64,000 nt of DNA from the NCBI GenBank assembly GCA_031556075.1, contig JAVBTS010000002.1, positions 14,016 to 78,015 on the forward strand. Direction: 5' to 3'. Source of the DNA: Alistipes sp. Lineage in GTDB: Bacteria > Bacteroidota > Bacteroidia > Bacteroidales > Rikenellaceae. How positions within the stretch are numbered: position 1 is the first letter of the stretch; every line of letters begins with the position of its first letter. Below the pieces are notes generated by a model that was not told the origin of the DNA, did not search any database, and worked only from the letters and a program-made list of their open reading frames with translations. Positions 21,377 through 33,932 of this stretch are shown here, one piece after another. The translations under genes were made by a program, and so were the position numbers.

Positions 21377-21450
21377 GGCACCGTAGCTTAATTGAATAGA
21401 GCATCTGACTACGGATCAGAAGGTTATAGGTTTGAGTCCTATCGGTGTCA
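21377..21450 (+). tRNA. tRNA-Arg (anticodon ACG)
   Basis: Cloverleaf: acceptor GGCACCG/CGGTGTC, anticodon arm TCTGA-CTACGGA-TCAGA, T arm ATAGG-TTTGAGT-CCTAT; CCA not encoded. Confidence 0.95.
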
Positions 21451-21453
21451 CAA
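21407..21453 (+). repeat. Left att core (3' part of tRNA-Arg)
   Basis: GACTACGGATCAGAAGGTTATAGGTTTGAGTCCTATCGGTGTCACAA, identical to 33886-33932. Confidence 0.95.
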
Positions 21454-21457
21454 GTTG

Positions 21458-21500
21458 AAAATCAAAGGGTTACGAGTAAAATCGCAACCCTTTATTTTTT
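21458..21500 (+). terminator. Element-supplied terminator for the tRNA
   Basis: AAAGGGTTACGA...TCGCAACCCTTT hairpin followed by a T run. Confidence 0.6.
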
Positions 21501-21504
21501 GCCG

Positions 21505-21526
21505 TTTGCATACAATTTGCATACAA
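21505..21526 (+). repeat. Putative integrase arm-type sites (left)
   Basis: Tandem TTTGCATACAA x2; the same 11-mer recurs at 33719-33759. Confidence 0.75.
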
Positions 21527-21633
21527 CTTCGCCGATTCTCTATTTTGAGGGTGCTTCTTGTATACCATAATTTTTTCCCACATAGACTCATATACGCCTC
21601 GTAGTTATCCTCTAACTCGCAAGAAAAGAATAC

Positions 21634-21673
21634 AAACAAAATAGCCCCTGCAGTTGCAGGGGCTATTTTGTTT
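21634..21673. terminator. Strong inverted repeat / bidirectional terminator near the left end of the element
   Basis: AAACAAAATAGCCCCTGCA-GT-TGCAGGGGCTATTTTGTTT, 19-bp perfect arms. Confidence 0.8.
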
Positions 21674-22035
21674 AAGTAAAAAAGTGGGGTTAGGTTATGA
21701 TTTATTTACAGTAAAATACGCTTTTTATTTCAAAAAGTTTCATAAAACGCCCTAATTATCAAAATATAACGCAGCTTAACTATGGTCAAAGCTCCATTTT
21801 TGCCACTGTTAGCCCTAAATGGGCTTGTTGTGGTTGAATATTTCCAATATCTATCAGTCTTTTTACAAAAGAAATAAAGTGACCAATCCGCTTATGTTTA
21901 CTCTGTTCCCATTCAACAAAGATACCATCGGTCTATATAAAAAACAATACATTTTATTCAGAAAAGAAGAGACACATATTTTATATGGGTCGGCAAAAAA
22001 CATCCGGAGCGCTCACACCACCCCGGATTGCTCAA

Positions 22036-22389
22036 TCATTCCACCTCAATCCCGGCTTTCTTAATAGCCTCTTTCCAGATCTCCCGCGCACGCTGTATCC
22101 CTTCCTCAAACTCAAATAATTCCTTCATAAAAAATGTATCATCACACTCGTTACCCGGAATAAGATTATACATTGCCCGCAACTCCTTCAACACCTCCGC
22201 AGGGTCTTCATTTTCTTGGCGTTCAAGCCAACCCTCTCCATTCTGAATAGAGCTAACGATATCGATATATCTATGTCGATTTTCGATAAACCGCCTCAAA
22301 ATGCCAAAATCACCATATCCCAGCTTAAAATAAGCAAGAGCATTATATATATCTTTAGCAAACCCCTCTGAAATTGTAATTGTACTCAT
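22036..22389 (-). CDS. Hypothetical protein (117 aa, acidic, helical)
   Basis: Third gene of a tightly packed leftward operon; ATG 2 bp after the upstream stop. Confidence 0.7.
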   Translation of the reverse strand: MSTITISEGFAKDIYNALAYFKLGYGDFGILRRFIENRHRYIDIVSSIQNGEGWLERQENEDPAEVLKELRAMYNLIPGNECDDTFFMKELFEFEEGIQRAREIWKEAIKKAGIEVE

Positions 22390-22391
22390 AA

Positions 22392-22706
22392 TTAGTAAAT
22401 TGTTATAAGGTTTTCGATTCTGAACGACCGGAAGGCGTTGACCTCAACATCGAAATAGCGCACGGTTTTAGGCGATTCTGCGCCCGATCCCTTGACGAGC
22501 GCGGCAACGTCCCGCAATGTTCCTTTGGCGCGGCGTAACGTGCCATCTGTCTTCTCGTAGCAGAACAACACAATGCCTGTTCGCATCCGCTTTGTTAGCC
22601 GGTACAATGCCCACGCTTTAGCAAGACAGATAGCGAAGGTCTTGCCGGTGGTCCGGGCAAGCTCCCACGCCCGGCTCATAATGTTCGATAGATCTTTCCT
22701 TTTCAT
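22392..22706 (-). CDS. SH3 beta-barrel (WYL_2/DUF2693-like) protein
   Basis: FCYEKTDGTLRRAKGTL...YFDVEVNAFRSFR. Confidence 0.78.
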   Translation of the reverse strand: MKRKDLSNIMSRAWELARTTGKTFAICLAKAWALYRLTKRMRTGIVLFCYEKTDGTLRRAKGTLRDVAALVKGSGAESPKTVRYFDVEVNAFRSFRIENLITIY

Positions 22707-22726
22707 AGTTCTATGGTTTTTAATGG

Positions 22727-22984
22727 TTAGTCTCCTAAATACTGGCCGTTGCGAGCGCTTGCGTAATAATCAAGGCATCCGGCAACAAATGATGCGCTGC
22801 GGGCTGGCTCGTAATTCTTAACCTCATTGGTTTCTACACGTCCCTCAACTTTTGCACGAGCGACATTCATTTTTTCGTTGAACCAAGCCTTGCGCAGGCA
22901 AGCGGCGAAGCTCATAGTCTTGTTGAATCTCTTGAGAACCCAAGCGTTCTTCATTATCCGGCTTTTGTTGTAGGTGGTTTTCAT
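22727..22984 (-). CDS. Hypothetical protein with IMxxAW...FAxCLxKAW motif
   Basis: Motif shared with the N-terminus of 22392-22706; TATCTTTG promoter 33 bp upstream. Confidence 0.72.
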   Translation of the reverse strand: MKTTYNKSRIMKNAWVLKRFNKTMSFAACLRKAWFNEKMNVARAKVEGRVETNEVKNYEPARSASFVAGCLDYYASARNGQYLGD

Positions 22985-22994
22985 ATTTGTAGCG

Positions 22995-23116
22995 TTTTAT
23001 CCTTTTGTTTGTATTGCAAAGATAGGATAAAATATTTCATCTTCCAAATAAAAAGAAATGTTTTTTGCTTTTTTATTTCAATTTTGTATGGTTTTAACCT
23101 TTTATTTGTATATTTG
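22995..23116. promoter_or_regulatory. Divergent promoter pair with an operator-like inverted repeat
   Basis: TATCTTTG on minus (23017-23024), flanked by IR TTTTATCCT/AGGATAAAA; TATATTTG on plus (23109-23116). Confidence 0.62.
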
Positions 23117-23141
23117 CCGTGTAATATTAAATCATAACATT

Positions 23142-23387
23142 ATGGAATTACGAGTAAAAGAGGTTTGCAAAGAGAAGGGAGTGCAAATGCAAGAGCTTGC
23201 CGAGAAGCTCGGCATCAATAGAATAACGCTAACAGCATCCTTGAAGGGGAACCCCACAATAGGAACCCTTGAAAAAATAGCTATTGCCCTCGGCGTTGAA
23301 GTTTCAGAACTTTTCGCTCCCATCACCGGGGACACTATTGCCTGCCCACATTGTGGGAAAGCAATCAGATTGGAGAAGGCTGAATAA
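23142..23387 (+). CDS. XRE/Cro-C1 HTH regulator with C-terminal CPHCG
   Basis: LRVKEVCKEKG...ELAEKLGI...GNPTIGTLEKIAIALGVEVSELF. Confidence 0.88.
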   Translation: MELRVKEVCKEKGVQMQELAEKLGINRITLTASLKGNPTIGTLEKIAIALGVEVSELFAPITGDTIACPHCGKAIRLEKAE

Positions 23388-23407
23388 TAATTGAAAATTA
23401 TGTGAGT

Positions 23408-23716
23408 ATGAATGCTACTGACATCTTTAACTACATTGCAGGCCTTGAGGCTCAATGCGCAATGCTTTCTGAGCAAAGCAAGTTTAAAAAGGAGAATTTG
23501 GTAGATGTTACAAAATTCTATGCAGTTCCAATGACAACAGCAGAAGTTGCCAAACTTCATGGAGTCTCAATAAGTCGGGTTCGAGACTACGCATCGAGAG
23601 GCCTCATCGAATTACACCCCAATTCGACGGATGCAAGGATGCTGTTTCGCGCCAGCACCATACTTGCATTCGACTTCTCAGAATTGAGGAAAGCTAAGCT
23701 AAGGCTAAAGTGGTGA
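23408..23716 (+). CDS. MerR/excisionase-like HTH protein
   Basis: MTTAEVAKLHGVSISRVRDYASRGLI. Confidence 0.65.
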   Translation: MNATDIFNYIAGLEAQCAMLSEQSKFKKENLVDVTKFYAVPMTTAEVAKLHGVSISRVRDYASRGLIELHPNSTDARMLFRASTILAFDFSELRKAKLRLKW

Positions 23717-23815
23717 AGCACTCCACCTCTACATTCGGAAATATTGTTGACCTCTCATATTGCAATACACCAATTAGGTTGGAAAAAGCCGAATAATTTA
23801 TAACTTTGCGACACT

Positions 23816-24376
23816 ATGGAGATACAGGTAATTCAGAACAAAATCTATGAGATTCGCGGCGTGCGCGTGATGTTAGACCGTGACCTTGCCGAGTTGTATC
23901 AGGTCACGACCGGCGCGCTTAACCAGGCTGTAAAGCGTAATGCCAAGCGTTTCCCTAATGACTTTATGTTTCAACTCACGCTGGAGGAGTTTGCAAACTT
24001 GAAATCACAAATTGTGACATCAAGTTGGGGTGGTATCCGCAAAATGCCATACGCTTTTACCGAGCAGGGATTGGCGATGCTATCAGGCTTGTTGAATAGC
24101 GACGTCGCGGTAAATGCGAATATCGCCATTATGCGGGCTTTTGTCGCTATGCGCAACTACATAGCCACCACCTCAACAATAACGGCAGAGTTAGCCGAAA
24201 TACGGTCTAAATTGACACTATTGGAGCGTAATGACGAGGATAACGCGGAGGCGGTAAACGATTTATCCGAAGATATGCGCAAGGAACTCGATAACATCTA
24301 CAACGCCATCGCTGCTCTGTCGGTCAAAACGCCGGAATTGACAATGCCTCGCAAGCCGATCGGGTACAAAAAATAA
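23816..24376 (+). CDS. ORF6N-domain DNA-binding protein
   Basis: KIYEIRGVRVMLDRDLAELY...NQAVKRN..RFPNDFMFQL...PYAFTEQGLAMLS; C-terminal RKPIGY. Confidence 0.9.
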   Translation: MEIQVIQNKIYEIRGVRVMLDRDLAELYQVTTGALNQAVKRNAKRFPNDFMFQLTLEEFANLKSQIVTSSWGGIRKMPYAFTEQGLAMLSGLLNSDVAVNANIAIMRAFVAMRNYIATTSTITAELAEIRSKLTLLERNDEDNAEAVNDLSEDMRKELDNIYNAIAALSVKTPELTMPRKPIGYKK

Positions 24377-24478
24377 ACATCACAAATTGTGATGTTAGAA
24401 GCTAAAGCAGCGGCCGCCCAAGCCCCCCCCTGTGCCAGACAAATCGGATATCACAAATTGTGACACCCCCGATAATGA

Positions 24479-24504
24479 AGCAGCCACCTCAACGGGTGGC
24501 TGCT
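24479..24504. terminator. Hairpin between the convergent ORF6N and TMP-like genes
   Basis: AGCAGCCACC-TCAACG-GGTGGCTGCT. Confidence 0.65.
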
Positions 24505-24769
24505 CTATTGATATTCCATTTTCTCAATGATTAAACCTCGTTCCCTCCTTCGAAGATGTATGAGTGATTTTTTGAAAATGCGGAACTTTCATAGGGCCTT
24601 ATCTATTTCACACACCCATTAAACTCACTTGTATGCCAGGTTGCACCTTGTTTTGACAACAAAGTGCAACCAACAACACCTCAAAATGCTATGAATTCAT
24701 GTTGAAAATTGTCTAAAGTAGACGAAAATAGAGAAATAATTTAGGTTATATCAAGACCAATAGCAGCAT

Positions 24770-27739
24770 TTACCAACTCTGTTTCATTTCTGTTTTCTTC
24801 AAAAGTGCTTGCGCTTCGTTGACATCCTGCGTGAGTAGGTACACCTTGATCCGGTCTATGCGATCATTTGTCGCCCGCAAATGATCGTTCGTTGCCTGCA
24901 AATTTTCTAACAGCAACTGATGTACAGCATCCTGTTTAGACAACAGTCCCTCCTGCTCTTCCATCCGACGGTTATTCAGTTGGCTAACAGACACAGGGGC
25001 AGATACGCTGCTTGTCATATATCCGGTTTTTGGTGCAACAAGCCCTCCCTGTGCGAACTTGCGACCATTGACGCTATTGGCTGCCGAGAGTGCGCCGATG
25101 CGGGCTGTGTCGCGCTTATTCACGATCGCCAGCAGCTCATCGCCCTCTATCTCGCCAATGGGTCGACCATCAATGTAAATCTGATGCCCGCCCTGCGCGT
25201 GGCTGCGGCCTTTAACAACCCCCATCTTCTCGCCAATAGGAATAAGACCTCCCTGTGCGTATTTCTGGGAAGAGATAGTTGCAACCTGTATCGCTCCCTG
25301 CGCTGCTGCTATTGCGGCGAAAGGAATACCCATAGGCCAGCCCCATTCCGCAAATGTTTTGGCAATAGACAGCGCAGTATTCATCAGCGCCTGCTTTATG
25401 TTGAGTTTCTTCTCGCGCTCGAACGCGACGCGTTCTGCAGCCTCCTCCTTTTCGGCTTTATCGGCTTCGAGCTTTTCAAGTTCCTTTCTGTACTTTTTCT
25501 CGGAGATAAGTCCCTTTTCACGCTTTGAGTCGAGGAGCTTAGACTCGACGTTATATTGAGCCTCGATAGCTTTTTTCTCCGCATTCAGCCGCCGCTGCGA
25601 GGCTTGCTTCTGGGCATCGATCATCGCATTACCAAGCTGGGTTGCTAACTCCCACGCCTGCTGCTCCAGTTGCTCAATCTCTTCGGGTTTGAGTTCAAAG
25701 GTTCGCATTAGCCAGCCCTTAAAGCCGCCACCACTACCATCAGCATTCAGACCCTTTGCCAAATTTTCAACCTCATTCTGGACCTCAGCCAGATTTGCAA
25801 GCGTTTGACCAAAAAGAGCATCCCTCTCCAGTCCATTCTTGAGCATCCACTCAAGATCTTGCCGGTAAGTTTGCGCCTGCGCCTCGCGAAGCTCGATCTC
25901 GTTTTTTAACTTGGCGGCCTTGCGTTTGTTGTCTTTAGGATCTGCTCCAAGCGTAGCATCCGCTATCCCCTCATTTAGCAGATATTGTTGTTTTGCCTGT
26001 GCAAGACTTTCTTCTACAAGCTTCCGACGCTTATCTAACTCACGTTTTAGGGCCTCAGTTATCGCCGCTTCGGCTTCGGATGCCGCACCGGGGAGCTTCG
26101 CGTATTCCTTGAGTTCGTCCATTGTAGCATTGCGGAGAATATCTGTGTGTTTCTTTGTCCCGCTATCCCTAATGTCGGTTGCTTTCTGGTCGTATTTCTC
26201 GATAAGAGCCGTTTTATCAGCCTCGATAGCTGCCACCTTTTCGGCATCGTGCTTATTGGCTTCCTGCTGTTTATTAAGTTGCTCTATTTTGCCATCATGC
26301 TCTTTTTGAGCCGCAAACAAAGCCCTTTCCGTTGCAATATTGTTCAGTTGGATTTTCTTATTCAGACTATCCTCCAGCGCTTGCACCTCAGCCTCTTGGT
26401 GATCGAGGTCATATTGGACGATGTCCACGGCCTGTGCCTTGCGGTATGCTTCATAGGCCTCTAACAGCTTCTTTTCATCCGCGATCTTCTTTTTCGATGT
26501 AGCCGCCCATTTTTTAGCCGCATCGGTTCGATCCTGTTCCATTTGAACATCCGCATCATCGTTGAGCCTGTTGATCCGGGTCTGATAATCCTGTTCTATT
26601 TTCACAAGCTCATCAAGTTCGCGCTGTTTCTCTTTGAGTAGCTTACGATCTCCGCTGAACCACCATTTCCACTTCGACTGCAGCGCCTTCACTTCGGCGC
26701 TGATAACCTGTATACGTTGATAAGCCTGCTCTTGCGCCTCTCTCGTCATTCGACGTTCGTTGGCTATTACTGCAATCGCCGATGCTCCCTGCGCCTTCAA
26801 CATACGAGAATTGAGCTCGATTGCGTAGTTATTGTCTTCGATGGATTTGGTGAATTTATCGAACTCCTTGGCAGCCGCATCGGCCTTCACGTTTCCGAGC
26901 ATCGTGGATAGCGCCCGCGCTTTGTCAATGATCCACCCAATGGCGGGTGCAAGACCAAGCGTGAGTACCCCCATAAGCAGGTTGGCACTCGCAGCGCTGA
27001 TGTTGAAGGTCGTTGCGAGCCACGTATTGGCATTTCCCCACGCGCGGGTTAGGCTCGATAAGATCGGAACATTCTTGATACCCTCCTTTTCAAATTGCTG
27101 CTGCAACCGGAAGACAGCCGACAGCGATGTCATGCCCTGCCGCGTACCCGGTATAATCTGCCCCAGCCGTGTGAGCACGGTTCCGTATGCTCCAATGTTC
27201 CGCTGGTTATTTCCAATGGTAGCATCAAACTGCTTTAACGCCGGATCAGCCTGCTCGATTGCCGCGAGGGTCTGCACACCCATAGGAGAAGCCTTTTCCT
27301 CGTCGGTCATTTTTCGATAGCTGATCCGCAGGAGCTCGAGGTTTTTTGATAGCTCTTCCGCAGAACCTACCGGAGCTATCATCGCCTTTGCCTGTGCGGT
27401 AAGAATCTGATTTACATCCGCTGCGGCAACTTTTAGAGTTGCGTTCGATGTTGCGAGCCTTTCAATTTCTACGGCTGCTTTATCGGCCTGTTTTGCGCCT
27501 ATTCTTGCATACTCAGTCCACTCCTCCATAGACTTTGAGTTCTGCGCCATTTCCTGCTTATACGCAGCGAGTTGCTGGGAATTTTCACTGAACGTGCCTG
27601 TGAACTGCTCCGCTGCCTTTACCGCGGATGACACCTCAGCGCTGAGTTTGCCGATTGTTTGCGTAACCTTTTGGGTATCTTTCTCACTATTCCCGAGATC
27701 CATAATAAGCCTGAATATCTTTTCTACTACATTTGCCAT
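24770..27739 (-). CDS. Phage tail tape-measure-like protein (989 aa)
   Basis: Long Ala/Glu/Lys/Gln-rich helical protein; IGNNQRNIGAY motif; two hydrophobic segments; C-terminal KYAQGG...GRSHAQGG...EIEGDE..IVNKR...KFAQGG typical of Bacteroidota phage TMPs. Confidence 0.75.
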   Translation of the reverse strand: MANVVEKIFRLIMDLGNSEKDTQKVTQTIGKLSAEVSSAVKAAEQFTGTFSENSQQLAAYKQEMAQNSKSMEEWTEYARIGAKQADKAAVEIERLATSNATLKVAAADVNQILTAQAKAMIAPVGSAEELSKNLELLRISYRKMTDEEKASPMGVQTLAAIEQADPALKQFDATIGNNQRNIGAYGTVLTRLGQIIPGTRQGMTSLSAVFRLQQQFEKEGIKNVPILSSLTRAWGNANTWLATTFNISAASANLLMGVLTLGLAPAIGWIIDKARALSTMLGNVKADAAAKEFDKFTKSIEDNNYAIELNSRMLKAQGASAIAVIANERRMTREAQEQAYQRIQVISAEVKALQSKWKWWFSGDRKLLKEKQRELDELVKIEQDYQTRINRLNDDADVQMEQDRTDAAKKWAATSKKKIADEKKLLEAYEAYRKAQAVDIVQYDLDHQEAEVQALEDSLNKKIQLNNIATERALFAAQKEHDGKIEQLNKQQEANKHDAEKVAAIEADKTALIEKYDQKATDIRDSGTKKHTDILRNATMDELKEYAKLPGAASEAEAAITEALKRELDKRRKLVEESLAQAKQQYLLNEGIADATLGADPKDNKRKAAKLKNEIELREAQAQTYRQDLEWMLKNGLERDALFGQTLANLAEVQNEVENLAKGLNADGSGGGFKGWLMRTFELKPEEIEQLEQQAWELATQLGNAMIDAQKQASQRRLNAEKKAIEAQYNVESKLLDSKREKGLISEKKYRKELEKLEADKAEKEEAAERVAFEREKKLNIKQALMNTALSIAKTFAEWGWPMGIPFAAIAAAQGAIQVATISSQKYAQGGLIPIGEKMGVVKGRSHAQGGHQIYIDGRPIGEIEGDELLAIVNKRDTARIGALSAANSVNGRKFAQGGLVAPKTGYMTSSVSAPVSVSQLNNRRMEEQEGLLSKQDAVHQLLLENLQATNDHLRATNDRIDRIKVYLLTQDVNEAQALLKKTEMKQSW

Positions 27740-27771
27740 ATTATCAGTATTTTTCTTATATTTGTAATATT

Positions 27772-27864
27772 ATGATTGACATGATTGAAACATTTTTAAA
27801 GGCAGCCGGCAAGACGTTCGTCATTTGCCTCATCATCCTTGCATTAATGCTTATTTTTTCGTAG
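27772..27864 (+). CDS. Putative 30-aa single-TM peptide, not in the ORF track
   Basis: MIDMIETFLKAAGKTFVICLIILALMLIFS*, with TATATTTG at 27757-27764, 7 nt before the ATG. Confidence 0.45.
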   Translation: MIDMIETFLKAAGKTFVICLIILALMLIFS

Positions 27865-28132
27865 TCTTCACTTCATCTCCCAGTTCAATTTTAGCGATCT
27901 TACACATCAACGTTTCCCTATGCCGTAGAAAACGCTGACTATATTCACGGTCTATCTGCGTTGCCAACTCGGCAAGATCATCAGCTCCACGATCGCGTAG
28001 CATCTGAAGGGTTGCCGTCCAAACCTCTCTGGCCATTTTCATCTGCAGCACAATGATTCGCTGCTTGAGTTTGGCAATCTCAATTCGTTTTCCCTGATCC
28101 GTAGAAGGTATTTTATCTTCCATTGTATTCAT
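27851..28132 (-). CDS. Hypothetical helical protein upstream of the TMP-like gene
   Basis: 93 aa, A-rich translation-initiation region, co-oriented with the element's leftward operon. Confidence 0.65.
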   Translation of the reverse strand: MNTMEDKIPSTDQGKRIEIAKLKQRIIVLQMKMAREVWTATLQMLRDRGADDLAELATQIDREYSQRFLRHRETLMCKIAKIELGDEVKTTKK

Positions 28133-28142
28133 TGTTTTTGTC

Positions 28143-28318
28143 TTTTTTAATAATCTCGCAAAACTCGCTTTTTTATAAGAGTCAGAAAAGTCAGTTTTTT
28201 ATAGCGTCCAAAAAGTCTACTTTTTTTAATAGACTCCGGAAACTCCGTTTTTTATATGGCCTGCAAATTCTGCATTTTTTCGGTTTTTTTTTATGGACTC
28301 GGAAAACTCGGATTTTAT
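28143..28318. repeat. Tandem array of 26-27-bp units: T-tract plus a 5-4-5 direct repeat with a different core in each unit
   Basis: Cores CTCGC-aaaa-CTCGC, GTCAG-aaaa-GTCAG, GTCCA-aaaa-GTCTA, CTCCG-gaaa-CTCCG, CTGCA-aatt-CTGCA, CTCGG-aaaa-CTCGG, separated by T6-9 tracts. Confidence 0.8.
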
Positions 28319-28319
28319 A

Positions 28320-28868
28320 TCAAGAGGCTATCAGCCTCCCAATCCTGAAATCAACGCCACGTACTGCAGCAGTAATTATCAACAAAATGCGATTAAAAGT
28401 GTCGTAGAGAAACTTTTGACTTTCGGGACCCGGCCACTCCGAGAACGGATGGCCCTCGAAAAAACGCCACGTAAAGATCTGTTTAGAAATATCTGTTAAT
28501 TGCAACTCGTTAAAGGTTTGTAGAACGGTATCATACGCCTCTTTGTGGTTAAAATCCGCACTCTCGATAGTAATATAGCGCACCTGTTCACCGAGCCGGT
28601 CGGTGCAATGCTGTCCACGCTTATAACGGAACGGAGAGCGAGGCGAACAGATATTAGTCTTGATTATTCGCCGGATAAAGAAATCCAGCTCATTCTTATC
28701 AGCCAACTGTGTCAATCGCATACTATTACTCTCCAGCTGACCGCATAGCACATCATTTACTACCTCAGCAGGATCTATTTCCAAGCGTGATAACCTAATG
28801 TAGTAGGCAGCACACTCTACCCATTTCGGATAGCGAGCTGTGATATAGTCGTTTAATATGTTTGCCAT
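28320..28868 (-). CDS. Sigma-70/ECF-like phage transcription protein
   Basis: Region-2-like DPAEVVNDVL and region-4-like LTDISKQIFTWRFFEG; WPGPE motif recalled from Bacteroides prophage proteins. Confidence 0.55.
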   Translation of the reverse strand: MANILNDYITARYPKWVECAAYYIRLSRLEIDPAEVVNDVLCGQLESNSMRLTQLADKNELDFFIRRIIKTNICSPRSPFRYKRGQHCTDRLGEQVRYITIESADFNHKEAYDTVLQTFNELQLTDISKQIFTWRFFEGHPFSEWPGPESQKFLYDTFNRILLIITAAVRGVDFRIGRLIAS

Positions 28869-28893
28869 ACGCATTGAAGTATCTGCTAATATT

Positions 28894-30282
28894 TCAAAAT
28901 GCCTCTTCTTCGCTCATAATCTCCACACTTGCCGCCGGCACATTATAATCGGCTATTCGCGTAAGCCCCTGATTGTGCCTAAACATCACATATCCTGTCG
29001 GCCCATTGCGTTGCTTGGCGATGATGAGCCGCCCCAGTCCCTCGGTAGTAATCGTTCCATATTGGCGAGTATTGATCGTCTTAATACCGTTCATAGCCGG
29101 ACGGTCGATGAAAATTACAATATCGGCATCCTGCTCGATAGCCCCCGACTCACGAAGGTCGGAGAGTTGCGGGGTTTTCTCGGCCCGCTCCTCAACCTTG
29201 CGCGATAACTGCGACAGCAAAATAACCGGAACGTCCAAGTCTTTTGCAAGAATCTTGGCGGCGCGCGTAGCCTCGGCAACCTCTCGCTCACGGATGTTGT
29301 TTCGGCCCTCGGTGCGCGTATCGAGCAGTTGGAGATAGTCGATGATAACCACACCAAGCCGCCCACGCTTTTTCAATAGATGGCATTGCGCACGAATGGC
29401 CCGCATTGAAATACCTGCCGTCGGGTTTAGGTAGATCGGCAATATAGACAACTCCGAATTAGCGCGCTCGAGCTTCATCCAGCTATCCGCCAGTACATTC
29501 CCCTCCTTATATGCATCTTTATCCGTATCGCTGCACCCTATCAGCAGGCGATCGCACAACTCCTGCCCAGACATCTCCAGCGAATAGATAGCTACCGGCA
29601 CATTTTGTGAGGCCGCTGCCTTTGCAAAGTAGAGCATCACGGCGGACTTACCCATAGCCGGACGACCCGCAAGGATAACCAACTGCCCACCTTGCCAGCC
29701 GCCGGTCATTCGATCGAGATCCGCGAGGCCGGTAGTGATTCCGGTCGGTCGACCTTCATTGCGGGCTTTCTGGCGCGCTTCGGCTTCTCGCAAGGCATCA
29801 GACAGGGCGGACTTGAAATGTTGCGGCATATCGTTGCATACAGCGTTACCGGCAATAGCATCGAAACGCTGCCCAGCCCATTGGAGCAGACCGGCGACAT
29901 CTTCGCCGCGTTGTTGTGTCTTGGCCGACAGCTCCTGCCCCAGCGCAGATAGTTGCCGAGCAATTTGCAGGTCCTTCAGGCAGCGAGCGTGTTCGGCGAC
30001 GTTGACGCCGGAACCTATGCCGTTCGTAAGGCCGGCAAGGTAGGCCGCCTGTCCTTTCAGAGCCGGGCGCTGCGAGAGAGTGTAGAGATCAACAGGCTTG
30101 CCGGCATTAAACATCGCCAACATCTCGAAGTAAATCCGCGCATTGACGGCATCATCGAAGGTTTCCGGCGTAATAATACCCGCAACCTCCGGCAGATAGT
30201 CTGCTTCGAGGATCAGCGCTCCCAGTACACTGCACTCCAGCTCGGGGGCATTAATCCCATTTGATTGTACCTGCTGCTTCAT
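28894..30282 (-). CDS. dnaB: Replicative DNA helicase, DnaB family (element-encoded)
   Basis: AGRPAMGKS Walker A, SLEM, IIDYLQL, LSQLSR, PQLSDLRESGAIEQDAD, KQRNGPTG. Confidence 0.95.
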   Translation of the reverse strand: MKQQVQSNGINAPELECSVLGALILEADYLPEVAGIITPETFDDAVNARIYFEMLAMFNAGKPVDLYTLSQRPALKGQAAYLAGLTNGIGSGVNVAEHARCLKDLQIARQLSALGQELSAKTQQRGEDVAGLLQWAGQRFDAIAGNAVCNDMPQHFKSALSDALREAEARQKARNEGRPTGITTGLADLDRMTGGWQGGQLVILAGRPAMGKSAVMLYFAKAAASQNVPVAIYSLEMSGQELCDRLLIGCSDTDKDAYKEGNVLADSWMKLERANSELSILPIYLNPTAGISMRAIRAQCHLLKKRGRLGVVIIDYLQLLDTRTEGRNNIREREVAEATRAAKILAKDLDVPVILLSQLSRKVEERAEKTPQLSDLRESGAIEQDADIVIFIDRPAMNGIKTINTRQYGTITTEGLGRLIIAKQRNGPTGYVMFRHNQGLTRIADYNVPAASVEIMSEEEAF

Positions 30283-30937
30283 GGTTTTCTCTATTTTGAG
30301 ATTGATCCGGGCGATGTACCCACGTCCTTACTGCCGCCTGCCAGTTCTTCATTTTGTTTTTACCGATCATCCAGCCTTTAGCCTCGTAGAAGTCGATGAA
30401 CCGTTGGGCATCTACAGCATAGCCTTTCCCAGTAATGAATGCTTGAACATCTTCAAAAGCAGGAGGGTAAAATGCGGGGCATTTTCTCTCTATACTCTCT
30501 CTTTTTACTTTACTTTTATTTACTTTACTTGCGATGCTTTGCGATTGCATCGATATCGCATTGTTATCGCAATGCGATAACCCCCACCTCACAGCATTGC
30601 CTAAACGCCCTGCTTCTGAACGTTTTGAACGTTTTTCGTCCAACACCAGCATTCGACGATTTAAGCTCTCAGAAAAGAAGATTTTATCGTCTTTTACGGT
30701 AAAAAGACCATAGTTACCTACAACTGATTTAACCTTTTCTGTAGAGGTATTGTAGCGGCGAGCGAGCGCGGGTATATTGGCAACAGGATAGGTATAGTCC
30801 GGCTGGTCGCGGAGAGTCTCGATTAGCATCCAAAAGATACCGTAAGCCTCCATCCCCAGTTGCTCGATCAACAGCACACACTTCGGATCATCCTTCGCAT
30901 TGCTATCGTGCGGAAAGTAATAGGCATCCTTACTCAT
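30251..30937 (-). CDS. Phage-type replication initiator (DUF4373/Lin1244-like N-terminus)
   Basis: YYFPHDSNAKDDPK...YGIFWMLIE; KRSEAGRLGNAVRW; C-terminal FIDFYEAKGW...MKNWQAAVRTW; overlaps dnaB. Confidence 0.8.
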   Translation of the reverse strand: MSKDAYYFPHDSNAKDDPKCVLLIEQLGMEAYGIFWMLIETLRDQPDYTYPVANIPALARRYNTSTEKVKSVVGNYGLFTVKDDKIFFSESLNRRMLVLDEKRSKRSEAGRLGNAVRWGLSHCDNNAISMQSQSIASKVNKSKVKRESIERKCPAFYPPAFEDVQAFITGKGYAVDAQRFIDFYEAKGWMIGKNKMKNWQAAVRTWVHRPDQSQNRENHEAAGTIKWD

Positions 30938-31224
30938 AAAACATCGTGGATAAAATAGCGCTTATAGCGCCCACCGTGTGTGCCCTTGCACCATATGTCC
31001 CCAATAGGTATATGCTTGTGCCTAAGAGTTCGAATTAAAGAGCGAGGATCGGATAGCTGTAAGTTTGTAGAAATATCCGCAACGGAATACTGGCCACCTT
31101 TTCGCAGCATATTGAATACCCTGCGCTGATGGTAGCCCAAAGATATTTGGGTGTTTTTGGCCTTGAGATCATTTGCCCCAGCGCACTCATTCCGAGTACC
31201 GGGGGCTTGCCTTTTGTCTGCCAT
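30934..31224 (-). CDS. Small winged-HTH protein
   Basis: YSVADISTNLQLSDPRSLIRTLR...RYKRYFI; 4-bp overlap with the initiator gene. Confidence 0.7.
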   Translation of the reverse strand: MADKRQAPGTRNECAGANDLKAKNTQISLGYHQRRVFNMLRKGGQYSVADISTNLQLSDPRSLIRTLRHKHIPIGDIWCKGTHGGRYKRYFIHDVL

Positions 31225-31229
31225 ACCCC

Positions 31230-31586
31230 TTACTTTTTACGGTTGGCACTTTCGGCAAGGCGTAATGCGGCATCGCCCTTCATTTCGGGGCGTGTCATAC
31301 GAGATTCAACCCACACAAGAAGCTCCTTTTTAGAGAAGATTGTGCGGCGGCCAAATTTACGATGCGGAATAGCATCTTTGTAGACGAGATTGTAAAGGGA
31401 GGCACGAGTCGCAGGAACACCCTGCTCCGTAAGGAATCGGGCAGCATCCTCAACGGTCAGCCCATCGGTTTCGACAGGCTCGTTCTTTCGTCGGAAGTCG
31501 GCGAGCTTCGGAATGATTGCACCTACTGCTTCACTAATGATAGTCTGCAGTTGTGCGGGAGTTGTTACAATTACGGTATTATCCAT
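31230..31586 (-). CDS. Excisionase-like HTH_17 protein
   Basis: LTVEDAARFL...SLYNLVYKDAIPHRKFGRRTIFSKKELLVWV. Confidence 0.85.
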   Translation of the reverse strand: MDNTVIVTTPAQLQTIISEAVGAIIPKLADFRRKNEPVETDGLTVEDAARFLTEQGVPATRASLYNLVYKDAIPHRKFGRRTIFSKKELLVWVESRMTRPEMKGDAALRLAESANRKK

Positions 31587-31697
31587 AGCCTTTGTACTAT
31601 TTCAGTTTGACATTACCGCTGATCAGGCGGGTAGTTCAACGTTGATAGTGCAAAGGTTCTAAATAAGAATTAGGGTTACTAAATGGGTTATATAACC

Positions 31698-32480
31698 TTA
31701 TTTATTTTTAGATGTCATCCCTATGATTTGCAGGAGATATTCGACATCTGCTGCGCCTCCCTGTTTATTTGATACTTTTGTATTTCGATGAGTATAGGCT
31801 TGGGCACCCTTAACTGACTTTAAATTTCGATTACCCCCGGTAACAAGATGTATAAACTCAGCCTTAGCTTGCCGTGTATAGCCGGCGCTATCGGGGAAAC
31901 ATTTATCCATTACTGCCCACATAGCTGCAATTCGACAATTCTTATTAAATTGTTCATAGGCCTCAACTTGAATGACACTATTGAGTAAATCTTCCTTCTC
32001 CCCCAAATAATCAAATATAGCTTTTGTAGCCGTTTCACTCACATCTAACCGGTCTGAACATAATTTATTGAAATCTATATTATGCCATTTACAGATACGT
32101 TTCATATTACCAACAACAACAATGCTCTTGATAACCAAAGAGCAGTATATCTCTGCAGGGCTATTTGGCTCTATCGAGAGATCAATTAACCGCCTAGTGT
32201 TGGCAATATGCCACGGTGCATTGCGGGTAAAGGAATATAGATCTCCTTCTAATATTCGACACGCCACATACTCAACTTGATCTCGCGAGTGCTCCTCTCC
32301 CCAAGAGGCAATACTATCGATGGCCGCGAGGCACGTATCTGAATTTAACACCTCATCACTTAAATTTACAGACCTAACTATCTCTAATACAGGTTTGCCA
32401 TCCGACAGACTTGTATGAAAGCATTTGTGTAATATTGAATCTAACTGCTTAATGTATTGTCTTGCCTCTTTGAATTCCAT
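31698..32480 (-). CDS. Hypothetical protein (260 aa), possible RteC-like C-terminal DNA-binding domain
   Basis: ATG 5 bp after the integrase stop; AT-rich; C-terminal KAEFIHLVTG...AY pattern. Confidence 0.6.
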   Translation of the reverse strand: MEFKEARQYIKQLDSILHKCFHTSLSDGKPVLEIVRSVNLSDEVLNSDTCLAAIDSIASWGEEHSRDQVEYVACRILEGDLYSFTRNAPWHIANTRRLIDLSIEPNSPAEIYCSLVIKSIVVVGNMKRICKWHNIDFNKLCSDRLDVSETATKAIFDYLGEKEDLLNSVIQVEAYEQFNKNCRIAAMWAVMDKCFPDSAGYTRQAKAEFIHLVTGGNRNLKSVKGAQAYTHRNTKVSNKQGGAADVEYLLQIIGMTSKNK

Positions 32481-32485
32481 ATCTC

Positions 32486-33709
32486 TCAAAATTTCGTTAA
32501 TAATTCTGCATTTTTCTGTCGCTCTTCGCGCTCGAAGGAGGCGAGGTAATTCTCGGTCGTTTTCAGATCCTGATGCCCCAGCGACTCGGAGATATAGGCG
32601 ATGTTCGCACCGGCACGCTTCAGCACCGTGGCAAACGAGTGGCGGGCCGTGTAGGTCGAGATATTGCCTATCTTCAGATTTTCGCCTACCTCTTTCATCC
32701 GCTTGTTGATCGCCCGCGTCAGATAGAGCGTCTTGAGCTTCTGCTGCATCGCGTCCTCGTGGCCGTTGAGGATCGGAAATATAAAAGCATTCGGGCTGGA
32801 AGGCGTTCCCCATCGGGCAATGATGCTCCGCATTCGATCGGTTACGACAACGCGGATCTCCTTGCGGGTCTTGGTGGTGTGCTCGGTCTTTTGCCGGACA
32901 AAACAGATCTCGCCATTGACAATATCCCGATGCCGCAGCTTCACAAAGTCGGCGACATTGATTCCGTTACATAGGTAGAGAAATAGCCAGTAATCGCGGT
33001 ATTTGGCAGTCGTGTCCGTGCCGTCTTCGTAGTTGGCTATCTGGCCGATCTGCTCCAGCGTAAGCGCCATTTTACGGCCTTCGCCGGATTGTATCTCATA
33101 GCGACCTTTACCGAACGGATATTGAGCTTCCTTGACAACACCCAGCCTGCGAGCCTCGTTCAGTATGGCCCGCAAATGCCGGAGGTGGATAGCGATTGTG
33201 GTTTGCGTCTTACCCTCGACGCGCAGGAATTCCGCATATTTACCCAGCCAGGCCATTGTGACAGACTCAAAGCGAATCCGCTCCCCGGCAAAGCGCGTCA
33301 GCCCCTTCAGCACGTTGTCATATACGAGCATACTGCCTATCCTGCCGCTTTGCTCCAGCTCGGCGATCTTCGCCTTAAACATCGTGTTGAGGGTATCGGA
33401 TGCAGCGCCCTTAAGTCGACTGTTGAGGGCATCGAACGAGAACCCTCCAGCCGAAGCGAGATCCTCAACGACATCGCGCACGATGTTATAGCTATTTTCG
33501 ATATCTTTGCGGATAGCGAGAAGGGCGCGGGCCTTCGTTGTAAGCAGCGCATCCCACTCCTCCGGCAATAGGGTTTTGCCGGTTGCGTAATATTTCTGCG
33601 TGCGCATAAATATCACTTGCACCTTGACCGGATACTTACCATCTTGTCGAGGCCGCCGGGCATCGAGAATCGTCAGTACCGTAATTCCGTCTTTTGAGTA
33701 TTTGAGCAT
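32486..33709 (-). CDS. Tyrosine recombinase / phage integrase
   Basis: Arm-binding N-terminus (LDARR...YPVKV), SAM-like domain, RQKT, YTARHSFAT, LGHQDLKTTENY; NGINVAD in place of the first Arg box, as in many Bacteroidota integrases; start at MLKYSK. Confidence 0.93.
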   Translation of the reverse strand: MLKYSKDGITVLTILDARRPRQDGKYPVKVQVIFMRTQKYYATGKTLLPEEWDALLTTKARALLAIRKDIENSYNIVRDVVEDLASAGGFSFDALNSRLKGAASDTLNTMFKAKIAELEQSGRIGSMLVYDNVLKGLTRFAGERIRFESVTMAWLGKYAEFLRVEGKTQTTIAIHLRHLRAILNEARRLGVVKEAQYPFGKGRYEIQSGEGRKMALTLEQIGQIANYEDGTDTTAKYRDYWLFLYLCNGINVADFVKLRHRDIVNGEICFVRQKTEHTTKTRKEIRVVVTDRMRSIIARWGTPSSPNAFIFPILNGHEDAMQQKLKTLYLTRAINKRMKEVGENLKIGNISTYTARHSFATVLKRAGANIAYISESLGHQDLKTTENYLASFEREERQKNAELLTKF

Positions 33710-33718
33710 CGCTGTACT

Positions 33719-33759
33719 TTGTATGCAAATTTTGAAATGTACATACAATTTGCATACAA
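33719..33759. repeat. Putative integrase arm-type sites (right)
   Basis: TTGTATGCAAA (inverted, 33719-33729), TGTACATACAA (33738-33748), TTTGCATACAA (33749-33759). Confidence 0.75.
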
Positions 33760-33885
33760 ATATACGAAATAAGGTGAAATAAACAAAACCAAAATGAAAT
33801 ATAATCACTATATTTACATCTGAAATACAGCCATTTACAAAGCAGAATAAAAATAACGTGAAACAACCAAAAATAGCCGAATTAC

Positions 33886-33932
33886 GACTACGGATCAGAA
33901 GGTTATAGGTTTGAGTCCTATCGGTGTCACAA
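33886..33932 (+). repeat. Right att core (displaced tRNA 3' end)
   Basis: 47-bp exact copy of 21407-21453. Confidence 0.95.

Follow-up and report, generated by a model that had tools for sequence, protein, structure and literature searches.

The stretch of DNA analyzed here, a 64-kb window of contig JAVBTS010000002.1, comes from a gut Rikenellaceae (Alistipes-like) genome and contains an island of 12,479 bp (repeat-to-repeat distance) inserted at a tRNA-Arg gene. The source genome, which we call G000, is a 1.83-Mb metagenome-assembled genome (MAG), 72% complete, obtained from an invertebrate gut metagenome. The island carries its own integration and replication genes together with an intact gene for a homologue of phage tail tape-measure proteins (TMPs), and we argue below that it probably represents a family of phage satellites. 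Its target, tRNA-Arg(ACG), was located with ARAGORN at 21377-21451 on the plus strand; the 3' part of the tRNA gene forms the left attachment (att) site, a 47-bp direct repeat at 21407-21453 (plus strand), and an exact copy of this repeat closes the island at 33886-33932 (plus strand). The arm-type motif TTTGCATACAA has four matches in the window, against 0.68 expected by chance, all of them within about 120 bp inside the island ends: two in tandem on the plus strand at the left end (21505-21526, starting at 21505 and 21516) and two at the right end, one per strand (33719-33759, starting at 33719 on the minus strand and at 33749). With its own att sites, an integrase and an HTH_17 protein, the island is a discrete mobile element. 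The initial annotation of this DNA had described perfect att repeats with arm sites at both ends, an intact integrase, an excisionase-like helix-turn-helix (HTH) protein, an initiator, a DnaB helicase, a repeat array, a 93-aa open reading frame (ORF) and a 989-aa TMP-like gene, with everything from the integrase to the TMP gene on one strand; each of these was found as placed, and the strand is the minus strand.

Reading inwards from the right end, the first gene encodes a tyrosine integrase of 407 aa (32486-33709) with the Pfam domains Arm-DNA-bind_5, SAM_5 and Phage_integrase. It is followed by a variable protein of about 260 aa (31698-32480), whose counterpart in a related element, L042, matches DUF6043; a 371-aa ORF that overlaps the integrase gene at this place has a true size of about 260 aa, its upstream part being an alternative frame of int. 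Then come an excisionase/AlpA-like HTH_17 protein (31230-31586; PF12728, E 1.5e-7), a 96-aa winged-HTH (wHTH) protein (30934-31224), which matches HTH_39 weakly and is kept across the satellite family, a replication initiator (30251-30937; Lin1244_N, phrog_2562) and a DnaB-type replicative helicase (28894-30282; DnaB_C, E 1.6e-82), all on the minus strand. A candidate origin lies inside the initiator gene at about 30500-30590, where ATCGCA-type iterons are followed by an A-rich tract, and the same arrangement is seen in sister elements. The host's own dnaB lies on another contig, with 38% identity to the island DnaB. From these sequences the island appears to have a replication module of its own, made up of the initiator with its internal iterons and the helicase.

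The TMP gene itself occupies 24770-27739 on the minus strand and encodes 989 aa without interruption. The closest relatives of its product are PF10145 proteins of 1,205-1,509 aa encoded in phage structural modules (E about 1e-212), one of which bears the name 'phage tail tape measure protein [uncultured Alistipes sp.]'. Residues 356-989 of the island protein are 57% identical to residues 855-1488 of the 1,488-aa PF10145 TMPs of full Alistipes phages, with 77% identity over residues 600-900; residues 1-300 are 24% identical to the N-terminus of the same proteins. The termini are collinear, and what the island protein lacks relative to the 1,488-aa TMPs is a block of about 500 central residues that includes the PF10145 segment. 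Pfam gives no PF10145 match in the island protein, which shows weak matches to TMP PHROGs, its N-terminus matching phrog_14295. Orthologues of 1,083-1,100 aa, also without a PF10145 match, hold the same position in other full phages of the lineage; a short TMP without this domain is therefore compatible with a working phage. The initial annotation had offered the lack of TMP homology as grounds for dropping its proposal; clear homology to TMPs, with position, instead leads us to assign the 989-aa protein as a putative TMP. No short fragments of its N-terminal third were found, a metagenome scan returning only 25-26% matches, and there is no remnant of a small terminase (TerS) downstream of the gene.

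Between the TMP gene and dnaB lie the remaining elements of the cargo slot. An ORF of 184 aa at 28320-28874 (minus strand) has no match in Pfam, NCBIfam, PHROGs or PADLOC, and Foldseek finds nothing below E 0.001. Its AlphaFold model (nine homologues, pLDDT 78) shows two helical domains, which VIA-align matches in order to sigma2 (Z 8.2, root-mean-square deviation 3.1 over 83 residues) and sigma4 (Z 7.8, root-mean-square deviation 2.7 over 69 residues). The highest-ranking structural matches are mostly sigma factors; for helical proteins, Z scores of this magnitude fall in the grey zone. The protein is likely, but not proven, to resemble sigma factors of the extracytoplasmic function (ECF) type; the earlier sigma-like call is thus backed by a predicted fold, with mid-range scores. 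Next to the TMP start, between it and the 93-aa ORF, a putative membrane micro-gene of 30 aa runs antisense to its neighbors (27772-27864, plus strand). It is preceded at 7-8 nt by TATATTTG (a TAnnTTTG box), its product begins with an amphipathic stretch and ends in a hydrophobic tail, and a homologue of 31 aa is found at the same place in five phage loci. Over the roughly 95 bp that precede the TMP start, identity to phage DNA is 75-77%, higher than in the N-terminal coding region of the TMP gene itself, and the conserved antisense micro-gene explains this high identity of a seemingly intergenic stretch. Small exclusion morons encoded beside TMP genes exist, such as HK97 gp15, which the micro-gene recalls; it could be a moron of the exclusion type, moving together with the TMP gene, and its shared DNA indicates that the two were captured together.

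The 93-aa orphan ORF (27851-28132, minus strand) has no homologue in 5.8 billion proteins, and its AlphaFold2 model (pLDDT 83), with two long helices, is a generic helical hairpin. Adjacent to it, at 28143-28320, about six units, each 26-27 bp long, form an array. A unit consists of an A/T tract and, behind it, a 5-4-5 direct-repeat core in which a 5-nt word recurs after 4 nt; the word differs from unit to unit. An origin, a packaging site or a promoter array are possibilities for this structure. When it was looked for as a shared pac, ori or promoter element, about 330 related loci (satellites and phages) showed no comparable array.

Both the putative sigma gene and the TMP gene lead to the same source. 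Their best matches stand 9.6 kb apart on one IMG/VR phage contig, and the 184-aa protein is 59-63% identical to the product of the gene preceding the late/structural genes in temperate Alistipes phages that we refer to as L001/L005-type. These are complete phages of 35-44 kb (about 38 kb; for example, IMGVR_UViG_3300045988_085024), with the gene order small and large terminase, seven tail-side genes (the last of about 840 aa), TMP, ClpP protease, capsid, portal, fibers and lysis; the sigma homologue lies 9.6 kb upstream of the TMP gene, just before the terminase and structural genes. Homology between island and phages runs from the end of the micro-gene to the TMP stop codon and, on the sigma side, ends 12 codons before the end of the gene. 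The claim that no tail-gene relics flank the TMP gene holds, as tblastx against the related phages found none, and the junctions beside it are gene-boundary module exchanges rather than the scars of deletions. Sequence comparison therefore places the origin of the sigma gene, the TMP gene and the micro-gene in a single Alistipes phage lineage (57-63% identity), from which they appear to have been exchanged at gene boundaries. This lineage, the source or helper lineage of the three genes, differs from the island in its early and replication region, and the 10 kb upstream of the phage sigma gene hold no homologue of the island int, xis, wHTH, rep or dnaB genes. Unlike the island, these phages also have terminase, portal, ClpP protease, capsid, fiber and lysis genes.

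To the left of the TMP gene lies a regulatory arm. An ORF6N anti-repressor-like protein (23816-24376, plus strand; PF10543, E 7.8e-37; phrog_4792) also matches PDC-S05, a candidate defense family of PADLOC (E 6e-58); it is 85% identical in the L077 element, and homologues are found at the same place in sister satellites and beside the integrase of related phages. On the same strand are a MerR/HTH_17-like small regulator (23402-23716) and a Cro/CI-type HTH regulator (23142-23387, the ORF opening at 23058; HTH_26/HTH_3; 45-73% identity to sister-element counterparts). Divergent from the latter is a gene for an 85-aa protein (22727-22984, minus strand), 47% identical in L080-type elements, with a weak likeness to the AcrIIA3 family (NF033948, 29 bits against a curated cut-off of 70). 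Two further minus-strand genes complete the arm: a WYL_2 (Sm-like SH3) protein (22392-22706; PF10902, E 3.6e-21), which is a conserved right-arm gene of the family with 64-66% identity to its sister-element counterparts, and a 117-aa ORF without a family match (22036-22389). In or just past the ORF6N gene we observed three copies of a palindrome-containing repeat with the core ATCACAAATTGTGA (23994-24019, 24369-24394 and 24440-24465), which may be a set of operators or terminators; one copy coincides with a branch point of the assembly graph in the source run.

No gene for a capsid, portal, terminase, tail tube, baseplate, lysis, relaxase or type IV secretion system component was detected anywhere in the island with four HMM (hidden Markov model) libraries (Pfam, PHROGs, NCBIfam and PADLOC), in agreement with the initial annotation. 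Transcripts and joints were judged from contigs of one DNA run and two RNA runs of the source sample. RNA contigs of one run cover the integrase gene and the variable ORF (31492-33741) as well as the cro, MerR-like and ORF6N genes (23177-24397), DNA carry-over being possible; no RNA contig lies over the replication genes, the sigma gene or the TMP gene, and such uncovered parts are not evidence of silence. Contigs of the DNA run (X1) match the window at 95% or more as far as positions 27314 and 27710, inside or next to the 5' end of the TMP gene, beyond which they diverge. The source sample probably also contains a related element or phage with the TMP start and the micro-gene in common.

The backbone of the island is not an isolated assemblage. 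Tracing it through the initiator to Rikenellaceae/Alistipes MAG contigs and IMG/VR records, we found it in at least 30 small elements of 9.7-16 kb, inserted in tRNA genes (Arg, Phe, Pro, Leu and Met). The census covers IMG/VR and species-representative genomes found through sequence patterns, and the ORFs of the relatives were called mechanically. Gene order is fixed: int, a variable ORF, xis, wHTH, rep, dnaB, a cargo slot, ORF6N (not always present), cro, the 85-aa gene (again optional) and wyl. Identities to the island range over 66-80% for int, 44-80% for xis, 47-78% for rep, 47-57% for dnaB, 35-73% for cro and 39-66% for wyl. Members include MAG contigs (L041 and L042), IMG/VR 'provirus' records of 11-19 kb and one element in a complete genome of the same genus (G165), where 13,948 bp lie between 45-nt repeats at a tRNA-Pro gene. 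The L042 element, at tRNA-Phe, measures about 9.7 kb, and other complete forms reach 15-16 kb. IMG/VR classes several of them as proviruses, with a CheckV completeness of 29-40%. The sister elements examined contain no capsid, portal, large terminase (TerL) or lysis gene. The recurrent family thus consists of small elements that integrate and replicate by themselves, have no genes for capsid, portal or TerL, and most often carry a phage TMP as cargo.

Indeed, the slot after dnaB holds a TMP gene in 23 of 28 loci that could be evaluated in an integrase-seeded scan of IMG/VR, often followed by a small terminase gene. In Group 2a the slot contains a protein of about 150-220 aa, a TMP of 1,021-1,074 aa (PF10145, E 3e-30; phrog_28, E 2e-46) and a 165-aa TerS of the GP3_package family; Group 2b has the same layout with a TMP of 939-945 aa. 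By BLAST, the sigma-like protein has no homologue among the proteins of about 150-223 aa encoded ahead of the TMP gene in other satellite groups. Group 3 (L333) has small ORFs, two of them overlapping, and then a TMP of 1,421 aa (phrog_9959, E 1.5e-49; phrog_14295); the overlapping pair resembles a G/GT arrangement without matching any family, and the L333 elements also hold Doc-like proteins. L074 encodes a 732-aa TMP-like protein. In L080-type elements the slot holds a TerS and a 754-aa protein that is 58% identical to the product of the phage gene just upstream of TMP. L041 combines HigB with a TerS-like protein that shares 73% identity with TerS from an abundant group of phages, and L042, L257 and L273 have no virion gene in the slot, L042 carrying instead a pentapeptide-repeat protein and Fic. 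The initial annotation had described the TMP as the only virion-like gene of the type. This stands for the present copy and not for the type: most relatives also have a TerS, some have the homologue of the gene upstream of TMP and a few have neither.

Relative to phage TMPs, those of the satellites are mosaics. One prophage in which the sigma homologue is also present encodes a TerS with which the satellite TerS proteins share 48-54% identity. Among six elements, the ratio of non-synonymous to synonymous substitution rates (dN/dS) lies between 0.05 and 0.24 for TMP and between 0.09 and 0.25 for TerS, dS being unsaturated (0.05-0.63); for the island TMP against phage TMPs dS is saturated and the ratio unusable. 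The initial annotation had put forward a neutral dN/dS for the TMP as grounds against its proposal, and the sister-element TMPs are instead under purifying selection. The low ratios imply that both genes are maintained within the satellites. The complete genome G165 also bears a second, decayed copy of satellite cargo (G165:C1:989207-990029; L194, L197 and L198), which consists of the last 110 TMP residues (88% identical) followed by a TerS split in two frames (77-95% identical).

Exchange with phages extends to the backbone. The integrase family of the satellites (70-78% identity) is also present in two groups of full phages in IMG/VR (L268-L272 and L289-L332), one of which also has ORF6N (73%), cro and wyl in common with the satellites, as well as the type of TerS seen in L041. 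Integration and regulatory modules are evidently swapped between satellites and phages.

A small and conserved size, integration and replication genes of their own, a Cro/anti-repressor switch, the lack of capsid, portal and TerL genes, and a selected cargo of helper-lineage origin together lead us to regard these elements as a family of phage satellites. For the island in particular, we favor a satellite that supplies its own TMP and relies on a helper for the capsid, the packaging motor, the rest of the tail and lysis, a reading to which we give a probability of roughly 0.6. The sigma gene, the micro-gene and the TMP gene, and in relatives TerS, would constitute the interface with a specific helper lineage. 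Upon induction of the helper or infection by it, the island would excise and replicate; its sigma-like factor would drive its own TMP operon and possibly the late genes of the helper; and its TMP, shorter than that of the helper and helper-like in its C-terminal half, would be built into helper-made tails to give satellite-specific chimeric tails. We infer helper dependence, packaging and TMP incorporation alike. In known siphophages the C-terminal end of the TMP docks at the tail tip. Conservation of the C-terminal half with phages, together with diverged or shortened N-terminal and length-determining parts, fits a use like that in the PLEs (phage-inducible chromosomal island-like elements) of Vibrio cholerae; by analogy with these, incorporation into chimeric tails is probably the use to which the TMP is put. 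The initial annotation had also offered escape from exclusion and poisoning of the helper, and either may be its role instead.

Several observations weigh against the proposal of a helper-dependent satellite. A small terminase or other packaging-redirection gene, present in most relatives, is absent from this copy, and no pac or cos site is recognizable in the island. No complete helper of the matching lineage is present in the 72%-complete MAG. The island TMP is a singleton, with no protein above 62% identity among the 5.8 billion, and its N-terminal third is only 24-28% identical to anything; as the PF10145 segment is absent too, the case that it functions rests on its intactness and on the sister elements. 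For the phage lineage itself, only homology suggests that its TMP is the measure of a long tail. Finally, the contigs of the source-sample DNA run contain neither an att-spanning joint nor an empty site, though contigs cannot prove the absence of either.

The rest of the source genome offers two phage-related loci. On contig C10, at about 185-216 kb (L340), lies a complete-looking prophage of another lineage (L202/L204/L206 type), whose PF10145-type TMP of 1,412 aa is unrelated to the island TMP except for a hydrophobic segment; the island TMP is the sole one of its type in G000. On contig C2, at about 53.2-62.8 kb (L338/L339), an intact phage-derived cluster is embedded among host genes, with the gene for CorA at one end and those for a methyltransferase and BrkB at the opposite end. 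It encodes, in order, gp140-like, gp410 and gp826 proteins, an 86-aa ORF, ClpP, a capsid protein, gp200, a portal and a DUF6712-like protein. The cluster is syntenic with the L001/L005-type phages (capsid protein 51-52% and portal 69% identical), except that TMP is missing and the 86-aa ORF takes its place. One C2 ORF of 446 aa that could be taken for a terminase probably lies on the wrong strand, across host genes, and profile searches of the 72%-complete MAG gave no match to TerL or TerS of the L001/L005 type. The same TMP-less cluster is present in 23 further genomes of four genera, often between the same host genes, with flanks conserved across the genus; the gap between gp826 and ClpP spans 45-841 nt, and no TMP profile matches within 9 kb. 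Across the bacterial family, the portal gene is single-copy in 336 of 371 genomes, and a matching TerL occurs in 366 of 400 as a separate small locus without the L001/L005-type TerS, while TMP homologues of the island type are rare (16 of 401 genomes).

These loci make it conceivable that the helper is not an infecting phage at all. The host's own domesticated, vertically inherited particle genes, similar to gene transfer agents (GTAs), could serve, with the satellite adding the TMP, the small terminase or the sigma factor. In favor of this idea, the C2 cluster of G000 is intact and has no TMP where the related phages have one, the TMP-less cluster, the portal and the TerL without matching TerS are widespread in the proportions given above, and island-type TMPs are rare. 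We nevertheless hold it unlikely: the satellite cargo is nearest to bona fide phages (57-63%) rather than to the domesticated loci, the 754-aa L080 protein matches a phage protein (58% identity) and nothing on the host cluster, the particles of the domesticated system may be short-tailed ones for which a TMP is unnecessary, and the complementarity is circumstantial. What can be said is that the satellite cargo comes from viral relatives of the host particle loci, and that TMP and TerS are the parts those loci lack. On this complementarity rests a possible satellite-of-GTA relation; the broader proposition that TMP/TerS satellites are tuned to the near-universal GTA-like particle genes, themselves of the same phage descent, and not only to infecting phages, strikes us as quite doubtful. 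A different role for the cargo, which we also consider improbable, would be protection of the host by a self-replicating element that is not packaged. The sigma gene, truncated TMP and micro-gene would then be anti-phage cargo, a decoy TMP poisoning tail assembly, or a membrane peptide blocking DNA entry, of phages of the matching lineage. The slots of sister elements do hold defense-like genes (the pentapeptide-repeat protein with Fic/Doc in L042, HigB in L041, Doc-like proteins in L333), ORF6N matches PDC-S05, this copy has no TerS, its TMP lacks about 500 central residues compared with its closest phage relatives, and satellites are known carriers of defense, Rta of PLE11 targeting the helper TMP (PMC12987554). 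However, in most family members the TMP is accompanied by a small terminase, a pairing that points to packaging over pure defense; full phages of the lineage have similarly short TMPs (1,083-1,100 aa) without a PF10145 match; and no known defense system was detected on the TMP, sigma-like and 93-aa proteins. Defense and a satellite life style are, besides, not exclusive.

The reading that we find least credible is a decaying prophage from which the structural genes were deleted on both sides of the TMP gene. It would agree with the closeness of the TMP and sigma genes to full phages of 35-44 kb, in which about 9.6 kb of structural genes separates them, yet several observations speak against it: the int-xis-wHTH-rep-dnaB and cro-wyl arms are not those of these phages and recur, with conserved size and order, in at least 30 elements; all island genes are intact; homology stops at gene boundaries and leaves no relics of neighboring phage genes; and purifying selection acts on the cargo of the sister elements.

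Phage satellites have been studied in depth in Proteobacteria and Bacillota. The literature that we searched held no described satellite of Bacteroidota or of Alistipes, which is not proof of absence. If the phage-satellite reading is right, the family would give a dominant gut phylum a tractable satellite system, one copy of which resides in a complete genome, and would extend to an unrelated phylum the tail piracy by satellite TMPs, shown only for the cholera-phage PLEs (2025-26), with TMP here the main and sometimes the only virion gene. The family bears on gene flow in the gut, on the evolution of tail length and of DNA-entry specificity, and on why virus predictors report 'proviruses' of 11-19 kb with a completeness of about 30-40%. 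The link to the GTA-like loci of Rikenellaceae, if real, would be a new kind of parasitism, in which a satellite supplying the TMP and TerS, or here a late sigma factor, turns host-encoded particles into its own transfer vehicle.

Satellite-encoded TMPs were unknown before 2025 and have now been shown for PLEs (Nature 2026; PMC12987554), reported for EPIPs (PMC12822802) and predicted for some phage-inducible chromosomal islands of the capsid-forming kind (cf-PICIs). These published cases weaken the earlier suggestion of a new satellite type, of which the apparently undescribed family remains. The PLEs, satellites of ICP1, are among the closest systems: like the island they are integrative, have no capsid genes and encode a TMP that is shorter than that of the helper and partly similar to it. 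The PLE TMP takes the place of the helper's in chimeric tails of helper origin, into which it is selectively incorporated, and efficient transduction depends on it (PMC12987554). In contrast to the island, the PLEs belong to another phylum, have a RepA_N/TcaP backbone (compared by description), use a virulent myovirus as helper and have genes for a tail assembly chaperone and a baseplate hub as well, neither of which was recognized in the island. The TMP of the island is accompanied by the sigma-like factor and the micro-gene, or by a small terminase in relatives.

Small terminase is the classic hijacking gene of packaging in the phage-inducible chromosomal islands (PICIs). These, including the Staphylococcus aureus pathogenicity islands (SaPIs), resemble the family in their 10-15 kb, integrase, Cro/repressor switch, own initiator or helicase with origin and, for the relatives of the island, TerS; PICIs also share a variable accessory slot for defense and toxin genes. 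They differ in remodeling capsids or packaging, in not being known for TMPs and in a backbone without sequence relationship, and the island has no TerS. The cf-PICIs and EPIPs likewise have predicted TMP genes outside Vibrio, EPIP particles having an altered tail length, but unlike the family they also encode capsid, scaffold and connector genes, and EPIPs use a serine integrase. With P4, which trans-activates P2 through delta and epsilon, the island shares a satellite transcription factor that could switch on helper late genes; the island factor is unrelated to P4 delta, being ECF-sigma-like and homologous to the helper lineage's own factor, and its activating role is predicted. Set beside these systems, the island and its relatives are a new family and a variant rather than a new principle, with no capsid genes, a TMP as main cargo and, in this copy, a sigma-like factor in place of TerS.

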